IMG/VR virus record: IMGVR_UViG_3300042090_003221
Location: 1-64,000 of that record
Origin: a virus
Length of the DNA: 64,000 nucleotides
Direction: 5' to 3' (one strand)
Part shown: positions 50,060 to 61,349 of the stretch, in pieces
Position numbering within the stretch: the stretch's first letter is position 1
Layout: every line of letters starts with the position of its first letter
Position numbers and translations under genes: made by a program
Notes under the pieces: model-generated
What the model saw: the letters and a program-made list of their open reading frames with translations, nothing else
The model's database searches: none
What the model was told of the DNA's origin: nothing

Positions 50060-51433
50060 ATGTCCAACCGCACGATCGCCCTGCCGGTCACCGTCGCTGA
50101 TATCGTCGAGGAATACGACGCCAAGATTGCCGGGCTCGGCGAGTCCATCGCCCGCTTCGAAGCCGCGCAAACCGCGATGAGGTCGGCGACCTGCATCCAA
50201 GGCGTCTATGCCGAGAGCGTGTTCACCGACGCCCGGTTCTACGAGAACGCGATCAAGCTGAACTTGCGCAAGTCGGGCTGGAAGGCGGTCTATCGCCGCC
50301 TGGACGTTGAGCGCCTCGCCAGCGCCAAGGACAAGAAGCTTTTCGAGCAGACGCTCGCGGATCCGCCGGCGCTGACGCTCGACAACGCCAAGGCGACGTT
50401 CGGCAAATACCTGTTGCAGCCGCGCTTTCATGCGCTGCGCGGACTGGCCGAGGTTTTCAGCGGGCTCGATCCTGCCTACAAGTCGCACAGCAAGGTCAAG
50501 ATCGGCGTCGCCGGCTTGCCGAAGCGGGTCATCATCGGGAACGTCGGCGGCTATGGCTCTTGGGGCCGCGACCGGCTGCGCGATATCCTGAACGCGCTCG
50601 CAGCCGCCCAGGGGAAGCCTCTCGTCGAGCACGACGAGCTCACGCGCGTCGACCGCCTGGGCGGGTTCGAGCACCGCGCCGGCGAGGTCGCCTTCGACGG
50701 CTCCCCGATCAAGGCCTATCGCGACGGCAAGGACGTGGAATGGACGCCGCCGGCGCGCGGTGTCACGCTCAAGAAATTCCTCAACGGCAACGGGCACGTC
50801 ATTTTCGATGCCCCGACGCTGCTCGACATCAACCGCGCGCTGGCGGAGTTCTACGGCGAGGTCTTGCCGGACGCCGAAGACGACGCGCCCAAGGCGAAGC
50901 GCGCCAGCACGAACGTCTCGGCTGATCTCCAGTTCTACCCGACCCCGCGCAAGGCGATCGAGACCGTGCTTGACGAGATCGGGCTGGCGCCGACGCGCGA
51001 CCGCTGGAATGACGCCACGCCGGCGCGGGCGGTTCTCGAGCCCTCATGCGGCGACGGCCGGATCCTCGACGTGATCCGCGAGCGCGGCCACCGCGGGCTC
51101 GGCGTCGAGGTCCACCCGGCCCGGGCCGCCGCGGCGAAGACCAAGGGGCACGCCGTCATCGTCGCGAACTTTCTCGAGCGCCCGGCGGAGCCGCTCTTCG
51201 ACTTCGTGGTTCTCAACCCGCCCTTCAGCGGCCGCCACTGGATGAAGCATCTCGCCCACGCGAAACGCTTCGTGAAGCCCGGCGGGACGCTGGCCTGTAT
51301 CCTGCCGGCGAGCGCGGAATATGACCACGGGGTCGCCAAGGAACACGGCGGCGAGTGGCACGACCTTCCGGTCGCCAGCTTCAGCGAGAGCGGCACGAAT
51401 ATCCCGACCGGCTTCTTGGTCTGGCGGGCATGA
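50060..51433 (+). CDS. DUF4942-like domain fused to amino (N6-adenine-type) DNA methyltransferase
   Basis: K.F.NGNGH; QFYPTP, LEPSCGDG, NPPF, F.ESGT. Confidence 0.85.
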   Translation: MSNRTIALPVTVADIVEEYDAKIAGLGESIARFEAAQTAMRSATCIQGVYAESVFTDARFYENAIKLNLRKSGWKAVYRRLDVERLASAKDKKLFEQTLADPPALTLDNAKATFGKYLLQPRFHALRGLAEVFSGLDPAYKSHSKVKIGVAGLPKRVIIGNVGGYGSWGRDRLRDILNALAAAQGKPLVEHDELTRVDRLGGFEHRAGEVAFDGSPIKAYRDGKDVEWTPPARGVTLKKFLNGNGHVIFDAPTLLDINRALAEFYGEVLPDAEDDAPKAKRASTNVSADLQFYPTPRKAIETVLDEIGLAPTRDRWNDATPARAVLEPSCGDGRILDVIRERGHRGLGVEVHPARAAAAKTKGHAVIVANFLERPAEPLFDFVVLNPPFSGRHWMKHLAHAKRFVKPGGTLACILPASAEYDHGVAKEHGGEWHDLPVASFSESGTNIPTGFLVWRA

Positions 51434-52310: not shown

Positions 52311-52339
52311 TTGACAAACAGGACAAAAAGTCCTAACAT
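52311..52339 (+). promoter_or_regulatory. Promoter/operator P6
   Basis: TTGACA + AGGAC-AAAAA-GTCCT; -10 TAACAT. Confidence 0.8.
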
Positions 52340-52375
52340 TCCCCGTACGGGGTTTTACGCAAAAGGACGGAACCG

Positions 52376-52822
52376 GTGACCCCAACCCTGATCGAGACCG
52401 AAGCCTTTGTCCGCCGCCTGTTCTTCGGCGTCGTCGACAAGGCCGGGGAGCCTTACGTCGAGCATTGCGTCCGCGTCATGGAGGGTCTGCCCGCGGCCGC
52501 GACGGACGACGAGCGCCACGCCGCGCTCTTGCATGATGTCCTCGAGGACACGGACCTGACCGCGCGCGACCTGCACTTGAGCGGCTACAGCGAGCGGACG
52601 GTCTGGCTTGTCCAGCGCTTGACGAAGTGGAAAGGCGCCGACTATGGCGCCTACGTCGCCGCGATCACAGCCTCGCGCGACGCCGGCCTGATCGCCATCA
52701 AGCGCGCCGACCTAAAGGATAATTCCGACCCGGCGAGGCTCGCGTTGCTGCCGGCGCGCGAGCGCGAGCGGCTCGCGGCGAAATATGCGTCGGCGCGGGA
52801 GATCTTGGAGGCATGGAAGTGA
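52376..52822 (+). CDS. HD-domain hydrolase, small alarmone hydrolase (SpoT/Mesh1-like)
   Basis: DKAGEPY..H..RV, AALLHDVLEDT, LTK, IK.AD..DN. Confidence 0.88.
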   Translation: MTPTLIETEAFVRRLFFGVVDKAGEPYVEHCVRVMEGLPAAATDDERHAALLHDVLEDTDLTARDLHLSGYSERTVWLVQRLTKWKGADYGAYVAAITASRDAGLIAIKRADLKDNSDPARLALLPARERERLAAKYASAREILEAWK

Positions 52823-53121
52823 AAACCTCGCACCCGGTAGACGGGCGGACGCTGAGGCGCACGCGCCCGCTGCCTCATGACCCCGCGCTGCGCAAGAGGG
52901 CGAGAAAGTTCTCGGCTCTCCTCAAGGTGCTCGATATGTCCCAGACGCAAGTCGGGCGGTTCCTCGACTTGGACGGGCGCACGGTGCGCCGCTGGGCGTC
53001 CGGCGACAGGCCGATTCCGATCGCCGTCGAGATCGTCCTGACCTACATGGCGAGGAATGGCCTGACGCCGAAGGAGATCCTCGCCGCCTGCAAGATCAAG
53101 CGACAGCTGGACGTGAGATGA
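52813..53121 (+). CDS. Xre-like HTH regulator
   Basis: MSQTQVGRFLDLDGRTVRRWASGDRPIP. Confidence 0.82.
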   Translation: MEVKTSHPVDGRTLRRTRPLPHDPALRKRARKFSALLKVLDMSQTQVGRFLDLDGRTVRRWASGDRPIPIAVEIVLTYMARNGLTPKEILAACKIKRQLDVR

Positions 53122-53152
53122 GCAGGTTCCTACCGAAGAAAAGGAGACTGAA

Positions 53153-53377
53153 ATGCAATTCAAGATCACGAACTACTGCGACCTCGACGGGGTGCCCGCC
53201 GTAGTCGCGACGCTGGACACGCCGAAGGGACTCGGAACCTACTGCTTCGAATACGTCGAGGGCCGGTGGCGGGAGCCGGAAGACAACGGCGCCGACGTCA
53301 TGAGCAAGTCCCGGGTCGTGACCCAGGACGTCTTCGAGCGCATGTTCCCTGACGTCGGCCTCCCGACGGCGCCGTAA
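53153..53377 (+). CDS. Small hypothetical protein, candidate immunity protein
   Basis: AAGGAG RBS; stop lies 1 nt from the effector stop. Confidence 0.68.
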   Translation: MQFKITNYCDLDGVPAVVATLDTPKGLGTYCFEYVEGRWREPEDNGADVMSKSRVVTQDVFERMFPDVGLPTAP

Positions 53378-53378
53378 A

Positions 53379-56300
53379 TCAGGCGACGTTCGGTCGGAAG
53401 ATCGAATGCCAAGCCGGATCGAGCTTGTCCTGAACGCCCTTGTAAAGCGCGCTCATCTTGTTGGACAGCTCGGTCCGGGCGACCGGATCCTTTGACTTCT
53501 GCCATTCCTGATACATATCGTGGCCGCCTTGCTTTTCCTTGGCGTCGAGCATGCCGGGCGCCCACATTTGGACCTCGCCGATCTGGCCGCTCTTGAAGCG
53601 CACCATCACCTTGCGGTCGAAATAGCCCTCTGGCGTCTTCGTCCAGCCCTCGTCGGCGACTTCGAAGTGACGCGCGAGCTGGCGCACCACCTTGTCGCTC
53701 TGGTCGGGCATCGGGGTGTCGAAGCCGCCGCGCACCGCGTCGTTGACCTCCTGAACGGTCTTGCCGCGCTCGAGCTTCTCCATGATGCGATCGGTCTTCT
53801 TGACGCCCGGATCCTTCCACTTGAGCCCGATGTCCTGGGCGGCCGCGGCGCAGACGTCGGCGAGCGCCTTCTGATTTTCGGGCGACATCGCGATGAGCTT
53901 GTTGACGTCCGACGGCGCGGACTTGCGCCAGAGGTTCTTGCGCTCCGACGCCCATTCGGGGCCGTGCGCCTTCAGGCCGGGGCGGTAGGGGCGCGCCTCG
54001 GCGACCGCGGGCGCCGCAGGAGCCGCAGGAGCTGCAGGAGCTGCAGCGGGTTTTGCGGCCGCTGGCGCGGCGGGCTTGGCCGCCTGGGCGGGGGCGGGCT
54101 TTGCCGCGGCCGTTGGCGTCGGCTTCGCGGCGGGGCCGCCAGCGGGCTTCCCTACGGCTTTGGACACGTCAGCCTTCGAGGGCATGGGCTGGTAGCCGGA
54201 ATGGCCGGTGAAAATCATGGGGCGGCCCTTGGCGTCTTTCGGCGGCGTGATGGCCTTTTCGCCGCCCTTGGCCTTCGACGCGGGCTTGGCCTCCGACTTG
54301 CCGCCCTTGGCCGGCTTCGCTTTCGCGCCGCCGCCGCCGGATCCGAACTGCCCGGCGTTGCCCGGCTGGCCGCGCTTGTGCTTGCCTTCGTCCCATTTGC
54401 CGGCATCGAGCGCGAGGGCGCGCAGGCCGCGGCGGAGCGGGTCGGCGTCCATCGCCGGCGCCGGGCAGTCGCGCGCAGGCGCACGCGAGGGCTTGGCGGC
54501 CGCGGCGAGCTTGCGCAGGCCGGCGGCGATAGGGCAGGCGTCCATAGCGGCGTCCTTGGCTTTGGGGCGGGCTGCAGGCTTATTTTCTATCGGCGAGACG
54601 TTGTATTCAGCGCCGCCGCGGGCGAATCCTTGCTTCTCGCGCTCGGTCGGGACGTAGGGCTTGCCGGTGCTCGCGTCGATCGGGCCTCCGCCAGATTTAG
54701 GGGAGGCCGCTCCGAATTTAGCCAGTGTTCCCTCGATCTGGCGCTGCAGGTCCGGGCTCTTGCCGTGAACGTGGCCGAGCGCTTGCTGAAGCGCGTCAAT
54801 GGTCGCCTTGCGGTCGCCCTTGGCGTTAAACTCGCGCGCCGCGTTGATCGCTGTGTGAGCCGCGACCTCGTGCTGCGGCAAAGGCTTGTCGAGATCGCTC
54901 TCGGCGGGCTTGGCGGGGGAGGGGGAGGCCGCAGCGAGCTTTTCCGGATCGCCACGGCTAAGCCGATCAACAATACCGTGCATGCCGGCGTTCTTCAGCG
55001 CCTCAATCGAGCCGTGCTGCTTCAGGGCCTCGTAGTCTTTGTCGGTCGGCGCTGGCAAATTCGGCGCGCCGGTGATTTGCTGGCGGCCGAGCGACCCCTC
55101 CTTGTTCTGCATGCGTTGGATATCGGCCCACTCGTGCCCGAAGATCTTCCCGCCGTCGTGGTGATCTTTCGGCGGCGTAGCCGGCTTACGCGCTGTGGCG
55201 GGAGCCTTGAACTCGGCGGGCTTGGCGGCGGTGCTGCGGTTCGCGCGCGACCACTCTTGTACCGCGTCAACTTGGCTGCGGCCCTTGGCGCGTTCCTGAC
55301 GGACGTAGTCTTGCACGCTCATGGACGTCGGCGAACCGCCCGCGGTAGCCTCGGGCTTGGCCGCAGGTTCCTTGGGGTCCTGCGACCCGACCGCCTGCGT
55401 CTTGCGCAGCTGGTGACCGCGCTCGCCGCCGGCGCCCTCCGGGGCGGCTTCGAAGGTGTGCTCGCCGTTCGACCACTGCGGCAACCGGCTGTGTTCGACC
55501 GGGTTGAAGCCGTTTGCCTTCATGTGCGCGTCGAGCTTGGCGAAATGGTCCTTGTCGGAGAAGGAGGCTTGCGACTTGTGGCTCTCGATCGCGCCGCCTT
55601 CGCCCGCGACCCTGCGGTAGCCGAGGCCGCCGAGCTTCAGGCCGGCGCCCTTGCCCTCAGCCGGCTTGCCCTTGGCCGACTGTGAGAACTTCGCGGCCCA
55701 GGCGACGTCTGGATTTCCGGCCGGTTCTTGAGCCGGGGCGGCGTTGCCGGACGCGCCGGCCGCCTCCTTCGGCGGGTCGACCTTCTGGACCTCCCACTTG
55801 CCGCTGCCCGATCGCTTGTCCGCGTCGCGCTCGGCCGCGGCTTTGTTCACGCTCCAGCCGACGACGTGACCCGCCGGCTGCTCGCCACCTTGGCTGACGA
55901 CGGCGTAAAGCGGCTGAGGCTTCGCGCCGCGCTCGGCTTGGCCTGCCCAGAACTTGCGCATCAGGTCGTTGGGTTTAGCCGGCACGCCAGTGCTGGCGCT
56001 GGCGGGCTTGGCGGCTTTGGCGGCGCCCTTGGCCAGGGCGGGGTCGTCGCTGCCGCGCATCTGCTCGTCGAGCAAGGCCTTCTTGTTCTTCAGCGTGGCG
56101 TAGCTCTCGCCGCCGAGCTTTTCGATCTCGGCGTTGGCCTTCGCGTAGTCGCTGAAGTGCTTGTCGCCCTTCGCGCGCGCGGCCCGCGTCGGGCTTCTGA
56201 TCGCGGCCTCATAGGCGCTGTAGGCCTCATGGGCACGGCGCGTTGCGTTTGCGAGATCCTTATCCACGTTGCGCCCGCCCGCGCGCATGGCCTCTTTCTC

Positions 56301-57005
56301 GGCGTTGCGGGCGGCGACGAACTCCTGTTCCAGGGCCTTCATTTCCGGCCCGTTCATCTTCTCGTCGTGGCGCTTGCCGTTCGCGCGCATCGCCTCTTCG
56401 TGCATCTTCTCGGCGGCGGCGACGTCTTTCGTCCGCGTCATGTGCTCGTGCGCTTTGGCGTAAGCCGCCTTGTCGGCCTCGTCGCGCTCCTTGAAGTGCT
56501 TGGCGGAGAGCTCGGAGATCGCGTTCTTGATCTCGTGCGAGGGGCGGGGCGCCTTCGGCTTCGGCTTGTCGCTCAGATGCTCGGAGCCCGGGCCGGAGAA
56601 CGCGGCGTGCGCGCTCGTGCGCGAGTTCGCGCGGCCCTTGCCGGCGCCGCGCGCCTCGCCGATCGGCTTCCCGTTGAACTTGCCGCCCATGCCGCCCTTG
56701 ATCTCGCCGTTCTCGCCGATCAGGACCGGTGTCCCGGGGCCGTTCGCGTTCGGGTGGACGGTGATCCACTTGTCGGCATCCATCGCGAGCCGCGCGAGGC
56801 CGCGCCGCACCGCTGTATCAAGCGCCATCGTTCCGTCGCCCGCCATCTCTTCCCCCGCGTCATCGTTGTCCGGATAATCGTCCCAGCCGCCGGTCGCGGT
56901 GAGCATCTTGTCGGTGTCGCCGGCGTCCGGGTTGCTGAACTCTTCCTCGGAGATCTCCGGCAGCTCGTAATTCGGGTCTTTCGGGACCGGCATGAGCTTA
57001 CGCAT
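53379..57005 (-). CDS. Large polyvalent protein with C-terminal RelA/SpoT-like nucleotidyltransferase
   Basis: VKK.DR..EK, NDAVRG, GYFD, GEVQMW, GH.MY; N-terminal LAMDA-WITVH module. Confidence 0.82.
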   Translation of the reverse strand: MRKLMPVPKDPNYELPEISEEEFSNPDAGDTDKMLTATGGWDDYPDNDDAGEEMAGDGTMALDTAVRRGLARLAMDADKWITVHPNANGPGTPVLIGENGEIKGGMGGKFNGKPIGEARGAGKGRANSRTSAHAAFSGPGSEHLSDKPKPKAPRPSHEIKNAISELSAKHFKERDEADKAAYAKAHEHMTRTKDVAAAEKMHEEAMRANGKRHDEKMNGPEMKALEQEFVAARNAEKEAMRAGGRNVDKDLANATRRAHEAYSAYEAAIRSPTRAARAKGDKHFSDYAKANAEIEKLGGESYATLKNKKALLDEQMRGSDDPALAKGAAKAAKPASASTGVPAKPNDLMRKFWAGQAERGAKPQPLYAVVSQGGEQPAGHVVGWSVNKAAAERDADKRSGSGKWEVQKVDPPKEAAGASGNAAPAQEPAGNPDVAWAAKFSQSAKGKPAEGKGAGLKLGGLGYRRVAGEGGAIESHKSQASFSDKDHFAKLDAHMKANGFNPVEHSRLPQWSNGEHTFEAAPEGAGGERGHQLRKTQAVGSQDPKEPAAKPEATAGGSPTSMSVQDYVRQERAKGRSQVDAVQEWSRANRSTAAKPAEFKAPATARKPATPPKDHHDGGKIFGHEWADIQRMQNKEGSLGRQQITGAPNLPAPTDKDYEALKQHGSIEALKNAGMHGIVDRLSRGDPEKLAAASPSPAKPAESDLDKPLPQHEVAAHTAINAAREFNAKGDRKATIDALQQALGHVHGKSPDLQRQIEGTLAKFGAASPKSGGGPIDASTGKPYVPTEREKQGFARGGAEYNVSPIENKPAARPKAKDAAMDACPIAAGLRKLAAAAKPSRAPARDCPAPAMDADPLRRGLRALALDAGKWDEGKHKRGQPGNAGQFGSGGGGAKAKPAKGGKSEAKPASKAKGGEKAITPPKDAKGRPMIFTGHSGYQPMPSKADVSKAVGKPAGGPAAKPTPTAAAKPAPAQAAKPAAPAAAKPAAAPAAPAAPAAPAVAEARPYRPGLKAHGPEWASERKNLWRKSAPSDVNKLIAMSPENQKALADVCAAAAQDIGLKWKDPGVKKTDRIMEKLERGKTVQEVNDAVRGGFDTPMPDQSDKVVRQLARHFEVADEGWTKTPEGYFDRKVMVRFKSGQIGEVQMWAPGMLDAKEKQGGHDMYQEWQKSKDPVARTELSNKMSALYKGVQDKLDPAWHSIFRPNVA

Positions 57006-58611
57006 GGTCGCGCCCCTTGTGATCGAACAGCCAGTCGACATGATCTTCGAGCTCTTTCGGCAACGTGCCGCGCTTGTATTCCGGCGACGTTACCAGCGCG
57101 GCGAGCTCCGCGTCGGTTTCTTTGATGTTCGTCGTCGCGTATTCACTGATATTCTCGCGGATCCACTTCTGCCGCGTCGTGTAGTCGATATTCAGCTTTT
57201 GCAGCACGCCCATAAGCCGGTCGGCTGACCGAACGCTCGATCGTAGGCCAAGGGCGTGCGCGAGTTCATGAACAATAGTCGCGCGCGCTTGGTCTTTGCT
57301 CGATGCGCTGACGGACCAATTCGCCTTTCCCGCAGCGATGCGCGCGTCGTTGGCTTCGGCTTGCCCTTGATTGAATTCGCCCCGCTTCGACGGGCTGATC
57401 GAAAAATACCCGACATCACCCTTGCCGGGCTCATTCCTGTACCATGCATGGCCGCAGGACTTGCCCGTCGAGCCCGCCGCCAAGACGACATGAGCCTTCG
57501 ACAGCGCCTTCTTGACGTCGAAGCCGTCGGCTTCCAACTTCGTCAGCGCGTCATTCACTTGCGAGACGATCTCCCGCATGCCCTTCGCCGAGGCGCCGGA
57601 CTGCGTGATATCGATCGGGGTGTGCCCCTTTATGCGGTAGCCCGGGTCGCTTCGCTTGGCCTCAATGATCTTATTGTATTGCTCACGCTTGGCCTTGCCA
57701 TCTTCGCCGTCCTTATCCGGGTGTTTATACCACTCGGAGAACGCCTTCTTGTCGTCGCCGTGCTTAACGCCGTTGATGAAACCGAGGCCGAAGCGCTCTT
57801 TCATGTAGTCGTGAATTTCTTTTGGCGTATCTTTGGCAAACGATTTTCCGCCCGTCGATTCAGCCTTTTTCTTAGTCTTGGGCTGATCCTTTTTGGCTTC
57901 TTTTTCGAGGCGCTTAATTTCGCTTTTGTGTTTATTGTAACCAAAAGCGTGGTTGTTCATTTCATTTCGGCGGGTCTTCGCCCAATCCTTCCACGACAAA
58001 TAAGCCGCATGGTGCGCGGCCATCGCCTTGCGGTGTTCGTCGAGCGTTTTGGCGTTCTCGCTGAGTTTGTTGGCCTCATCCGACAGATGGGCCTTCTTGA
58101 CCCTCTCGAACTCGTACGCTTCCTTGCTGCCGTAGGGGTGCGGGTTCTTGGCGCGCGGATCGAACGGCGGCGCTTCCGGCGGCTTCGGCGCTTCGGCGGG
58201 CTTCGGAAGCGCGAGCCGCTTCTCCGGTCCAGGGCCGAGCCAAATCGCCGGCGAGTGCTGGCTGGTCGAGCCGGACTTCGCCGCGCTCTTGCTGCTCGGA
58301 TTGACGAACTTGCCGTTGAGCTTGCCGCCGGCGCCGCCGATGATCTGCCCTGCGCCGTTGATCAGCGCGGGCTGACCCTTGTTGTCGGGGCCGTTGGGAT
58401 GGATCGTGATCCAGTGCTCGGCGTCCATCGCGAGCCCGCGCCAGCCCGCGGCGTCGTGCGCCGCGCCGCCGAAGCCCGTGAGATCGACGATCTCGGACGT
58501 CCCGCGGAAGACGACGCCGGCGGCGATCTTCGGCGCGGCGTCGGCGGCAAGGCGCGGCTTTCCCAGCGTAGCGGCGAAAGATCGCCAACCGCTTGCGGAT
58601 GCGTCGGTCAT
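56998..58611 (-). CDS. Polyvalent-type protein with C-terminal zincin metallopeptidase
   Basis: IVHELAH...ISEYATTN..E..AE; LAMDA-WITIH module. Confidence 0.82.
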   Translation of the reverse strand: MTDASASGWRSFAATLGKPRLAADAAPKIAAGVVFRGTSEIVDLTGFGGAAHDAAGWRGLAMDAEHWITIHPNGPDNKGQPALINGAGQIIGGAGGKLNGKFVNPSSKSAAKSGSTSQHSPAIWLGPGPEKRLALPKPAEAPKPPEAPPFDPRAKNPHPYGSKEAYEFERVKKAHLSDEANKLSENAKTLDEHRKAMAAHHAAYLSWKDWAKTRRNEMNNHAFGYNKHKSEIKRLEKEAKKDQPKTKKKAESTGGKSFAKDTPKEIHDYMKERFGLGFINGVKHGDDKKAFSEWYKHPDKDGEDGKAKREQYNKIIEAKRSDPGYRIKGHTPIDITQSGASAKGMREIVSQVNDALTKLEADGFDVKKALSKAHVVLAAGSTGKSCGHAWYRNEPGKGDVGYFSISPSKRGEFNQGQAEANDARIAAGKANWSVSASSKDQARATIVHELAHALGLRSSVRSADRLMGVLQKLNIDYTTRQKWIRENISEYATTNIKETDAELAALVTSPEYKRGTLPKELEDHVDWLFDHKGRDHA

Positions 58612-58726
58612 GTGTTGAGCTTCCCCTCGAATGATCAAAACTTCGGCCGATGCGTGGCAGAGGCGAAAAACGCCTTTGACTGCCGAGAGTCTGTGTGTGA
58701 TGCTCCAATCAACCAGGGAGCGTTAT

Positions 58727-58948
58727 GTGATGAAATATACCAAACAAGAATTGGACGAAGCAGCTATCTACGACTTAGCGATCGATGCCCGCACTTCGCG
58801 GGAGCAGGCAGAGAACGGCCCGTATTTTCCAGAAATCGGCATTACCCGCGAAAGCTGCATTGCCTACGCTGAAAAGTGCGAGCGCTCCATTGAGAGATAC
58901 AAAGACGGTGGGGCGCACGCGTTTGTCTTGGGCAAAGAATCGCTTTAG
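58727..58948 (+). CDS. Small hypothetical protein convergent on the zincin gene
   Basis: GGGAG RBS; TTGACT upstream; stop overlaps the zincin stop. Confidence 0.6.
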   Translation: MMKYTKQELDEAAIYDLAIDARTSREQAENGPYFPEIGITRESCIAYAEKCERSIERYKDGGAHAFVLGKESL

Positions 58949-59715
58949 GTCTTCCGGGCCGTCTTAATCAGGTCCGACCACATGGCGTCAGCTAATTTCT
59001 GCGCGTGGTCGGAAAACATGCCGGCAGAGGATTTCTTGGTTTCATACGCGACGAAGCTTTCGGCCATGAACTCGAAAATGTTCTCCGCGCCATACGCTGA
59101 GGTCTGATTGTTAACAATGTTCAACGGACCTTTCCCACTATAACCCAGGTGCCCGTAGACGATTTTCCAGAATTTCTTGAAGCCTATCTTGTCTTCTAGT
59201 TTCGACGCGAGCAGGTGCCCGAATTCATGCGTCATGACGCCGCCGACGGAAGGGTCATTCATCATTCCGTCCCATTCCTTGGCGTATTTTTCTAGGCCTT
59301 CTTTTGTCCATGCTTTAGGACTCAGATTTATGTTGTTTCCGGAGCGATAAGCCAGCGCTCCCTCGCGTTCGTTTTCTTCTACCTTCGGTGACCCCGCCTC
59401 CGGATATTTTTTCGAAAGCTCGGCGACCCTGGAGTGCGCGACGGTCTTATGGTCATTCTTTCCCCGGACCTCGGAAATGTTTTTGCCCGTAAATTTTCCG
59501 CCTAGACCGCCTTTGACTTCGCCGTTAGCGCCGAGCAATACAGGGGATCCGGGGCCTTCTTTGTTGCCGTGAACTGTGATCCACTTCTCGCCAGCATCCA
59601 TTGCCAGGGCGCGCCATCCTGCCCGCGCCGCCCTCACCTTGCCGTCCTGCGCAAGGCGCGGCTTCGCTACAGCGGCGGCAAAGCTTCGCCAACCGCTCGC
59701 AAGTGCGTCGGGCAT
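58945..59715 (-). CDS. Zincin metallopeptidase with shared N-terminal module
   Basis: THEFGH...SAYG..N..EF.AESF; LAMDA-WITVH module. Confidence 0.82.
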   Translation of the reverse strand: MPDALASGWRSFAAAVAKPRLAQDGKVRAARAGWRALAMDAGEKWITVHGNKEGPGSPVLLGANGEVKGGLGGKFTGKNISEVRGKNDHKTVAHSRVAELSKKYPEAGSPKVEENEREGALAYRSGNNINLSPKAWTKEGLEKYAKEWDGMMNDPSVGGVMTHEFGHLLASKLEDKIGFKKFWKIVYGHLGYSGKGPLNIVNNQTSAYGAENIFEFMAESFVAYETKKSSAGMFSDHAQKLADAMWSDLIKTARKT

Positions 59716-59750
59716 GGTGTAGAGGTTCCCTGTTTCAGGAGGCGGGTCTG

Positions 59751-60104
59751 ATGATCGACGCGGCGACGCTTGCCGAGGCGCTCCAAATTCCGGAGCGGTT
59801 CTTGACGGCGACGGATTCGGCGCTTGGCGATTTTGTCGAGGCGCTCAATCTCGCTTCAGAGGCCGTGACTGTGGACACGGGGCGCGGCGCGCGCGCAATA
59901 CTCCGTCCCGACGGGAGCCCTGCCGAAGCCGGCGACTTCCGTCAAGGGGAGCGCATTGAGCTCCGCGAATATCAAGTAGGGAATATGGTCGCGAGCTCGA
60001 CCGCCGGCCCGGTCTTCTGGAACGACGGCAGCTTCTTTATCGACGGCGGCGGCAACCGGAAACAGCGCCGGGCGGCGCGGTCTTCGCGCGCTGGTACGCG
60101 ATGA
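59751..60104 (+). CDS. Hypothetical protein
   Basis: AGGAGG RBS; ends GNRKQRRAARS. Confidence 0.6.
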   Translation: MIDAATLAEALQIPERFLTATDSALGDFVEALNLASEAVTVDTGRGARAILRPDGSPAEAGDFRQGERIELREYQVGNMVASSTAGPVFWNDGSFFIDGGGNRKQRRAARSSRAGTR

Positions 60105-60141
60105 CCGACTCCGCGAGGGGGCCGTTCAGAGGCGCCGCGGC

Positions 60142-60384: not shown

Positions 60385-61158
60385 TTAAAACGGGATAATC
60401 GGCTCTCCGACGCATCGGCAATTGAAGATCTGGCCGGGCAGGGAGTGATGGTCCGGGGGATCGCAGAGCGGCGGGTTGAGGTATTCAAACGCTTTGCCGT
60501 TCAGCCTGCGGTGACCGGGGCGGACATCGGAGTCGCCGATCGTGCGCCAGATGAAGTGGGTGCATCCGATCGACTGCGCCCGGGTCTGCGTCAGCACGCT
60601 CCCGGTGCGGGCAACCTCGGTGCGCGCGATCAGCGTCGCCCTCGAGCGCGAGACCTCGCCGGTGCGCATGATCTCGGCGATGTAGGCCGCGGGTCGCTTC
60701 CCCTCGGTGATGCCGGCGAGCGTGACCTTGCGGACGCGCTCCGCGGCCTCGCGCGGAATCGAGGTGATGAGCGAGGTCTGCTCGTTGAGCAGCGCCTGCA
60801 TGACGCCGCCGACGGGGGTGTCGTCGATCTCGCGCCGCAGGTTGCGGCCGATGCGCGCCGCGGCCTCCTTCCAGCCCTGGAGGTCGCGCGAAGACATCTC
60901 GGTGATCATGCGCGTCGTCACGGAGCGCGCCCAGGGATCAAGGATCTTGGCGTATTGCTCGAGCTGGATCTGGACCGCCTCATAGACCGCGGGGTCGGTG
61001 AGGTCGAACCCCGCGATGAGGTCTTGAACGACCTGCGCCACCTTGCGGAGCTGGCGCGCGTACTTGCCCTCGACAACGCGGGCGCGCTTGTACGCCTTGC
61101 CGGCCGGAGTGTCTCCGGCGCGGTCGAAGGCGTGGTCGAGGCGGACGAGGGCGTTCAC
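60385..61158 (-). CDS. MuF/SPP1 gp7-family head morphogenesis protein (no toxin extension)
   Basis: LI.SIP.EAA.RV; RA.LIARTE; W.T..D..VR..H; PG.I.NCRC; GTGA-coupled start. Confidence 0.92.
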   Translation of the reverse strand: MNALVRLDHAFDRAGDTPAGKAYKRARVVEGKYARQLRKVAQVVQDLIAGFDLTDPAVYEAVQIQLEQYAKILDPWARSVTTRMITEMSSRDLQGWKEAAARIGRNLRREIDDTPVGGVMQALLNEQTSLITSIPREAAERVRKVTLAGITEGKRPAAYIAEIMRTGEVSRSRATLIARTEVARTGSVLTQTRAQSIGCTHFIWRTIGDSDVRPGHRRLNGKAFEYLNPPLCDPPDHHSLPGQIFNCRCVGEPIIPF

Positions 61159-61349
61159 GAGACGGCCCGCATCCGCAGCTCGCGCCGGCGTCTTGCGATG
61201 GCAGCCTTGACCTCCTCGACGCCGAGAACCGACGGAAAGCGAGCGCTCATGCAATGACCCGTCACGTCGTCGAGATACGTTGCTGTCGTGCCGTATTGAT
61301 CGCCGTAGACGTAGGGACGAACGATAATCATTGAAATAAAGTCGTTCAT
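61155..61349 (-). CDS. Hypothetical protein
   Basis: AGGA RBS; coupled to MuF. Confidence 0.55.
   Translation of the reverse strand: MNDFISMIIVRPYVYGDQYGTTATYLDDVTGHCMSARFPSVLGVEEVKAAIARRRRELRMRAVS

Follow-up and report, generated by a model that had tools for sequence, protein, structure and literature searches.

Phages are known to encode toxins that act through alarmones, the closest described case being the Apk2-IapK-Aph1 system, in which a toxin of the phage head module is accompanied by an immunity protein that binds it and by an HD hydrolase (PMC10083569, PMC12226406). Aph1 is a compact enzyme that cleaves (p)ppApp and not (p)ppGpp, is carried by a prophage beside the MuF-fused toxin Apk2, and protects experimentally against both phage Apk2 and Tas1 (PMC10083569); such hydrolases are interchangeable among systems (PMC12226406). 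The same papers left open whether head-module toxins are carried in the virion and how an enzyme that poisons the host is controlled. Here we describe a locus that bears on both questions. It lies in the first 64 kb (64,000 nt, the window) of the 115.8-kb IMG/VR record IMGVR_UViG_3300042090_003221, which is classed as a provirus, and consists of a gene for a 1220-amino acid (aa) protein ending in a synthetase-like domain and, converging on it from the other strand, an operon encoding an HD hydrolase, a helix-turn-helix (HTH) protein and a protein of 74 aa (P74).

The locus probably encodes a toxin-immunity module of a phage, with a toxin of the adenosine 3'-pyrophosphokinase (Tas1/Apk) kind and an arrangement of genes that is new. 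The pairing of a toxin with two antidotes is not in itself new, since Apk2-IapK-Aph1 has been published; the new element, and the most interesting outcome of the analysis, is the antisense design.

Probable toxin domain and convergent antidote operon

The two transcription units meet with a stop-to-stop gap of 1 nt, the TAA of the 74-aa gene occupying 53375-53377 and the reverse-strand stop of the 1220-aa open reading frame (ORF) 53379-53381. Their parts are as follows.

52311..52339, plus strand: sigma70-like promoter, TTGACA-17-TAACAT (promoter scan 10/12)
52318-52336: operator-like palindrome, ACAGGAC-N5-GTCCTAA, within the spacer and -10 region of the antidote promoter
52376..52822, plus strand: putative HD hydrolase of Aph1 type, single-domain, 148 aa (7smg match, phrog_990, HD_4)
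52813..53121, plus strand: HTH protein, 102 aa (HTH_23, 5.7e-6; Xre-like-HTH, 0.011), with a 10-nt overlap with the HD gene
53153..53377, plus strand: P74, 74 aa, converging on the toxin domain (AAGGAG, 8 nt upstream of its ATG; G+C of 0.89 at third codon positions)
53379..53990, minus strand: predicted Tas1/Apk-type small alarmone synthetase (SAS) domain of the toxic (toxSAS) kind, residues 1018-1220 of 1220 aa (family profile, AlphaFold2, Foldseek and VIA-align)

The C-terminus of the 1220-aa protein (ORF 53379..57041, minus strand) went unrecognised by PHROGs, by NCBIfam and by Pfam, including its RelA_SpoT family, with the Pfam search run on the whole protein, on its C-terminal 213 and 313 aa and on the whole record. 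An exhaustive HMMER search places the domain in a family of 627 representative clusters, found in proteins of 100 to 5000 aa. A 40-member profile of this family matched Tas1 (PDB 6ox6) at E 1.1e-20 over residues 244-435, the whole toxin domain, and the exported alarmone synthetase SaEAS at E 2.6e-7. An AlphaFold2 model built with the family alignment reached a predicted local distance difference test score (pLDDT) of 96.6, the single-sequence model (52.6) being of no use, and its best 25 Foldseek matches in the PDB were all SAS, Rel or SpoT synthetases. VIA-align ranked Tas1 at the top (Z 15.4, root-mean-square deviation 2.6 A, 161 residues), then SaEAS (Z 14.8) and SAS1, SAS2 and RelP (about 12-14), with CapRel (11.3), the long Rel/SpoT enzymes (8-10) and FaRel2 (7.3) in the lower ranks.

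All five synthetase motifs (syn1-syn5) are intact, and their columns are invariant or nearly invariant in the 40-member alignment and in a narrower one of 12 members. On the minus strand they lie at 53760-53816 (K..R..EK), 53721-53747 (DxxR), 53601-53633 (GY), 53562-53579 (ExQ) and 53502-53528 (H..Y), the residues being K64, K72, D84, R87, G122, Y123, D125, R126, E139, Q141, H157 and Y160 in the numbering of the 203-aa segment. The acidic metal-binding residues, D of syn2 and E of ExQ, are present, and the motifs align with those of Tas1. Judged by profile and predicted structure, the domain has the small alarmone synthetase fold of the RelA/SpoT superfamily and is nearest to the toxin Tas1. 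Megablast with the locus and tblastn with the domain returned nothing from 50,697 phage records, and the empty tblastn result indicates that the domain forms a clade separate from Apk2. What it makes is not legible from the sequence, because its syn3 motif is atypical, the specificity of Apk2 was unchanged by motif swaps (PMC12226406) and SaEAS favours guanine acceptors (PMC12691689); (p)ppApp is the favoured putative product, on the likeness to Tas1 and the neighbouring hydrolase.

The hydrolase has a clear counterpart. In a phmmer search of the PDB it matched Aph1 of Bacteroides caccae (7smg; 149 aa) at E 3.9e-14, residues 4-142 aligning to 6-139, and the next match, the HD domain of SpoT (5.3e-6, followed by Rel and Mesh1), was eight orders weaker. 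The ligands H30, H53-D54 and D112 align with the motif residues of 7smg. The protein belongs to phrog_990 (1.2e-33), matches Pfam HD_4 under the gathering score (6.7e-5) and has 292 homologues, mostly HD_4, and NCBIfam gave only weak spoT_relA matches. It is probably a (p)ppApp hydrolase of the Aph1 type.

The operon has a sigma70-like promoter of its own, and the palindrome within that promoter is part of a wider set. The motif TTAGGAC-N5-GTCCTAA occurs six times in the block of plus-strand genes to which the operon belongs (42422, 43934, 45558, 48052, 49273 and 52318; 0.02 expected by chance), each time at a promoter, the fourth and sixth copies with two mismatches each. Candidates for binding it are the HTH protein of the operon and its paralogue at 231-494. 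P74, alone or as a 13-member profile, had no match in Pfam or the PDB, including Tis1 (chain B of 6ox6), and a word-indexed search of 5.8 billion proteins, which has limited power for distant relatives, recovered nothing beyond the query itself; the structural neighbours of its ESM Atlas model (pLDDT 0.80) are all unnamed. P74 is probably the cognate immunity protein that would bind the toxin.

Contigs from an RNA library of another study, a wetland metatranscriptome, are identical to the window at 52358-52665, beginning 19 nt past the -10 box, and at 52784-53603, a stretch that leads from the HTH gene across P74 and extends 225 nt into the 3' end of the toxin gene. They are unstranded and come from a run selected by this stretch, for which reason genes were not ranked by contig depth; what they demonstrate is limited to RNA-library molecules that cross the convergent junction.

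What the first-pass annotation had observed in the letters alone is confirmed by these results. It had described a minus-strand protein ending in a RelA/SpoT-like domain with the motifs given above, a converging operon of HD, HTH and 74-aa genes 1 nt from it, and a SpoT/Mesh1-like character for the HD protein, which now proves closest to Aph1 ahead of the Rel, SpoT and Mesh1 domains. Classification of the synthetase domain by hidden Markov models (HMMs), which it had proposed as a check, succeeded with the family profile and failed with the Pfam model.

The antisense partner gene in related loci

With the 12-member alignment (the 40-member one being too diverse), 83 related loci were gathered, representing 59 distinct domain sequences; scans of viral and genome contigs with single proteins found nothing. 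A small ORF antisense to the domain and abutting its end is present in 82 of the 83 loci, that is, in every one of the 58 distinct loci with enough flank, and the lone exception has a flank of 18 nt. Homologues of P74, detected with tblastn and then an HMM, occur in 17 loci (13 distinct), all directly at the domain end and all but one on the strand opposite the domain, at an identity of only 24-34%. Wherever the domain is C-terminal and the flank sufficient, the order of HTH and P74 genes is that of the window, with an HTH homologue directly upstream of the P74-like gene in L035/L036, L042 and L062. The conserved partner of the toxin domain is the 74-aa gene, not the hydrolase.

In five distinct loci (L005, L006, L029, L038 and L045) the P74-like gene is nested within a polyvalent ORF of 1500-2900 aa that reads through it, the read-through yielding a Ser/Thr/Pro/Ala-rich linker; in L005 the toxin domain is followed by ddrB-ParB and LPD38. 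A profile of six free-standing copies, searched against 10,919 six-frame ORFs, matches all five nested ones (E 3e-15 to 3e-6) and no other ORF. The nested copies keep an ATG at the homologous position with GGAG or AAGGA 8-12 nt upstream, and share one phase, in which third codon positions are opposed. The other 45 distinct loci have a second antisense family in the same place and phase, ORFs of 61-79 aa starting M(R/K)(L/F)F and preceded by GGAGG, mostly beside proteins of 1100-1300 aa in aquatic phages of 39-57% G+C. Both groups have sigma70-like promoters (TTGACx-(16-17)-TA(c/t)ATT in the nested copies), which, like the antidote promoter of the window, are matches to a consensus. Substitutions track the codon positions of the antisense gene, numbering 281/251/443 at positions 1/2/3 in the P74 family and 1722/1418/2272 in the second, the pairs compared not being independent. 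Hhalign of the two families was not significant (probability 1.7%), and homology is not claimed.

Nested P74 ORFs could in principle be mere shadow ORFs of a G+C-rich frame. This reading was rejected, because free-standing copies exist without any overlapping ORF and their profile finds the nested ones, and because promoter, Shine-Dalgarno sequence and ATG are conserved and the second family persists at 39% G+C. By these several sequence tests, the nested copies are real genes.

Of 154 representatives, 75 have the domain at the C-terminus, as does the window. Among the 72 with at least 60 aa after the domain, 24 continue directly into the linker, a 'shadow peptide' of the antisense gene, and two carry P74 there in sense. 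P0068 and P0136 carry P74 in sense behind the domain. In L041 (1550-5308, plus strand) one ORF comprises a NUDIX box, an HPR motif, the Apk-like domain, an in-frame P74-like segment in sense and a DUF2213-like part.

Carrier protein and genomic setting

The window, of about 65% G+C, carries myovirus-type structural genes on the minus strand (major capsid protein, head protease, sheath, tape measure and baseplate). The toxin gene closes a minus-strand run from 63971 to 53379 consisting, in order, of a 706-aa ORF, a MuF gene and the genes for proteins of 256, 546 and 1220 aa.

60385..61254, minus strand: free-standing MuF/SPP1 gp7-type head morphogenesis protein, 289 aa (Phage_Mu_F, 1.5e-17; phrog_324, 1e-57)
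58945..59715, minus strand: 256-aa paralogous cargo-like protein, shared N-terminal module, C-terminal HEFGH
56998..58638, minus strand: 546-aa paralogous cargo-like protein, shared N-terminal module, C-terminal HELAH
53991..57041, minus strand: carrier part of the 1220-aa protein, Ala/Lys/Gly/Pro-rich (phrog_25904; no Pfam or PDB match)

The last three proteins share an N-terminal module (consensus GWRxLAMDAxKWITVHPN..GPGxPVLIG.NGEIKGG.GGKFNGK; 56667-56801 in the 1220-aa gene) and differ in their C-termini. A second, degenerate copy (W..HKRGQPGNAGQF) makes a weak internal repeat in the carrier at 54327-54395. Pfam found no domains in the 1220-aa protein, PAAR and MuF included, and by Pfam, PDB and the family profile together the synthetase is its one recognisable domain. 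An HMM of the N-terminal module found nothing in the related loci. Most short forms of the family have a motif [W/F]xExxH(P/K)RxxxGxF..GG about 100 aa before the Apk-like domain (54327-54395 in the window); in L038 (9857-9961, 10871-11065) the same motif also opens the module after the nested gene, and tblastn detects a weak similarity between the motif and the shared N-terminal module (E 0.005). The motif may mark the boundary of a module or act as a signal for processing or targeting. RNA-library contigs also match the region of the two HExxH proteins (57359-57549, 58733-58963 and 59673-60138).

Elsewhere in the family, the domains nearest to that of the window, at 51-65% identity, form C-terminal extensions of Phage_portal_3 portal proteins (P0277, P0011, P0012), and other carriers are DUF2213 head proteins, proteins with NUDIX and ADP-ribosyltransferase domains, and ddrB-ParB/LPD38 polyvalent proteins; P0029 unites NUDIX, DUF2213, ADP-ribosyltransferase and the Apk-like domain. 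In BFVD the fold is present in 'ART-PolyVal-like', 'DdrB-like' and 'Tas1' proteins of uncultured phages, and a MuF gene lies directly upstream in L038 and L041. All carriers of recognisable type are capsid-associated or polyvalent proteins. This observation supports, indirectly but better than any other at hand, delivery of the domain with the DNA, which two earlier studies predicted for such RelA/SpoT domains (PMC5512222, PMC3482391).

The antidote operon belongs to a plus-strand block (42.4-53.4 kb) that comprises about 30 small, early-type genes and is situated between the cargo-gene run and the protease gene. PHROG annotation of ten of these genes gave no functions, so the label 'early' is without support from gene content. 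Upstream of the operon, the block includes a DUF4942 and methyltransferase protein (PF13708, 1e-30) at 50060-51433 (plus strand). The sole tyrosine-recombinase-like match of the record is in a 404-aa ORF outside the window (G000:C1:103456-103740, plus strand), at E 3.9e-6 and below the Pfam cut-off; with so weak an integrase signal, temperate status rests mainly on the IMG/VR provirus label. A PADLOC run gave zero hits.

Proposed mechanism, rival readings and described systems

In the mechanism that we favour, the toxin domain would most likely move pyrophosphate from ATP to adenine nucleotides, producing (p)ppApp, draining ATP and stopping growth, and the 1220-aa protein would be packed in the capsid and ejected with the DNA. 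The Aph1-type hydrolase would turn (p)ppApp back into AMP, ADP or ATP, P74 would bind the toxin as its cognate immunity protein, and the HTH protein would act as regulator. Phage DNA, whether incoming or resident, could support antidote synthesis earlier than toxin expression or in its absence; with separate, convergent promoters this synthesis would be uncoupled from late toxin synthesis, and strong late transcription may dampen it.

The interpretation offered by the first-pass annotation, that toxin and antidote are separated in time, is partly supported. Separate control stands, with a promoter and operator belonging to the operon and an opposite-strand partner in the relatives, while 'late', 'early' and 'injected' remain presumptive descriptions. 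The antisense rule supports an uncoupling in time, and convergent transcription may make toxin and antidote mutually exclusive. It could be speculated further, and tentatively, that Tas1-like toxin domains of phages make up a large clade not described before, that the small antisense gene serves this clade as cognate immunity gene, and that its obligatory antisense place is regulatory, whether the gene ends at the toxin stop, as in the window, or is nested in a polyvalent ORF that translates it in reverse as a disordered linker. Immunity would be made from a host-type promoter on phage DNA, incoming or resident; convergent late transcription would silence that promoter, and the toxin would be packed unarmed by immunity, as 'armed cargo'. 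If true, toxin and antidote would exclude each other in time through gene geometry alone, and the domain with its antisense antidote would move as one double-stranded cassette among portal, MuF-adjacent, DUF2213 and polyvalent carriers.

Several points weigh against a (p)ppApp toxin with two antidotes. The Pfam RelA_SpoT model (PF04607) does not match the domain, the identity of which to Tas1 is only about 22%; its syn3 motif, GYFDRK, fits neither the SxH pattern of RelA/SpoT homologues (RSH) nor the GxN pattern of Apk2 (PMC12226406), and the guanine preference of the structurally close SaEAS (PMC12691689) makes the product uncertain. P74 has no detectable similarity to Tis1 or to any known immunity protein, and the RNA support consists of unstranded contigs from a run selected by this stretch. 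A linkage of hydrolase and synthetase in relatives, on which the first-pass annotation had staked its interpretation, was not found: an HMM from 121 homologues detected an HD hydrolase within 10 kb of the domain in 0 of 83 loci, P74 being linked instead, so that the tie between hydrolase and toxin rests on one operon and on homology to Aph1. This agrees with the variable presence of aph genes beside Apk2 in published systems.

The same parts could serve another purpose. As an inter-bacterial weapon, the toxin would reach non-lysogenic competitors from virions or lysing lysogens, with the operon immunising the lysogen, as has been proposed for MuF toxins with downstream immunity genes (PMC5576092, PMC10083569). 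The provirus class in IMG/VR, the two mismatches in the sixth operator and the environmental RNA-library contigs over the operon, which are compatible with expression in a lysogen, would all fit. However, the operator is the same as at five other promoters of the early-type block, which suggests repression in a lysogen, the evidence for an integrase is weak, and many relatives belong to polyvalent proteins from aquatic phages, the fetched loci showing no sign of lysogeny; we regard this use as unlikely, though plausible enough to keep in view. The doubt may instead concern the antidotes. P74 could be a regulator paired with the HTH protein or a chaperone for capsid loading, and the HD protein a general counter-defence enzyme present here by chance, given that P74 resembles neither Tis1, IapK nor known families, that the HD gene is unlinked in relatives and that most bacterial Aph homologues are not beside toxins (PMC10083569). 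Against this, a small antisense gene stands exactly at the domain end in all 58 distinct loci with enough flank and travels with the domain among portal, DUF2213, polyvalent and stand-alone carriers, so its function should be tied to the domain and not to the regulation of one phage; the low identity of the partner beside the higher identity of the toxin is moreover the usual signature of immunity genes. These alternative roles of P74 and the HD protein seem rather unlikely.

Two further readings concern the product. The domain could make (p)ppGpp, or both alarmones, to reprogramme host transcription during takeover, with the hydrolase as a reset; alarmone signalling was proposed by Iyer et al. 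for the RelA/SpoT domains that occur in polyvalent proteins of phages (PMC5512222). The preference for guanylate acceptors of SaEAS, tied with Tas1 as the nearest structure (PMC12691689), and a syn3 motif unlike that of Apk2 (PMC12226406) would suit it. Such signalling is nevertheless improbable, as the adjacent hydrolase is nearest to Aph1, which spares (p)ppGpp (PMC10083569), the best family-profile match, Tas1, makes (p)ppApp only, and toxin-immunity pairs typically show a small partner gene that is universal and evolves fast. Pyrophosphorylation of the 3' CCA end of tRNA, blocking translation in the manner of CapRel, FaRel2 and PhRel2, was raised by the first-pass annotation and finds CapRel and FaRel2 among the structural matches; yet both rank under Tas1, SaEAS and every nucleotide-making SAS, and the presence in the operon of a nucleotide hydrolase of Aph1 type agrees with a nucleotide as the product, making this the least credible of the readings.

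If the toxin-immunity reading holds, the locus and its 83 relatives provide a concrete design that bears on virion carriage and toxin control. They would add a probable new immunity family, overlooked by standard gene callers when nested, and another instance in which a hydrolase of Aph1 type has been recruited as second antidote. The nested genes, backed by comparisons on two strands, are well-supported candidates for bacteriophage genes that function while overlapping another in antisense, and the 'shadow' linker peptide is a marker by which such cassettes could be found in protein databases.

Among described systems, the polyvalent proteins and MuF fusions with RelA/SpoT domains (PMC5512222, PMC3482391) resemble the present family in that relatives of the domain occur in phage proteins of 1100-2900 aa with ddrB-ParB, LPD38, NUDIX, ART or DUF2213. 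In the window the domain is the sole recognisable one on a stand-alone protein, whereas the relatives L005 and P0029 clearly qualify as polyvalent. Term searches of those two papers located no reference to a partner gene, whether antisense or overlapping, nor to any immunity gene for the domain, and a family-wide antisense rule is absent from the papers that were read or searched. The Bxa MuF ADP-ribosyltransferase (PMC11699363) is similarly a prophage head-module toxin with two cognate immunity proteins, with a different toxin chemistry. The toxSAS modules (FaRel-ATfaRel, CapRel, PhRel) also have a SAS-fold toxin, the antidote of which is a small alarmone hydrolase or a small protein that binds the toxin, but they are co-transcribed two-gene cytoplasmic modules or fused defence sensors, in contrast to a protein of a structural module, and their enzymes rank lower structurally against the domain (Z 7-11).

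Closer is Tas1/Apk1-Tis1, the type VI effector pair of Pseudomonas aeruginosa (6ox6), as Tas1 is the best profile match and the top structural match and its syn positions align. Tas1 has a PAAR domain and belongs to a type VI secretion system; here there is neither, the context being a phage head module. In syn3 the domain reads GYFDRK where Tas1 reads GYSGVN, at an overall identity of about 22%, and the immunity candidate shows no sequence match to Tis1 and lies on the other strand.

The nearest system overall is Apk2-IapK-Aph1 of temperate phages (of Bacteroides caccae, S. pneumoniae and M. haemolytica), with IapK being Tis1-like. Common to both are a C-terminal domain of the (p)ppApp-synthetase type on a head-module protein, its gene lying in the head-morphogenesis module of a phage or prophage, and a small protein plus an HD pyrophosphohydrolase for a double protection, the latter enzyme here a clear Aph1 homologue. 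Apk2 is fused to MuF, whereas in the window MuF is separate and three genes upstream, and the carrier is a low-complexity protein of 1000 aa with a module common to two neighbouring genes. The immunity genes of Apk2 lie downstream in the same orientation; here they are convergent, with their own promoter and operator, and the cassette includes an HTH gene and a small partner without detectable sequence similarity to Tis1. The locus is thus a variant of Apk2-IapK-Aph1, in which the new features are a toxin unfused from MuF, convergent antidotes accompanied by an HTH gene, and a new family of small partners.

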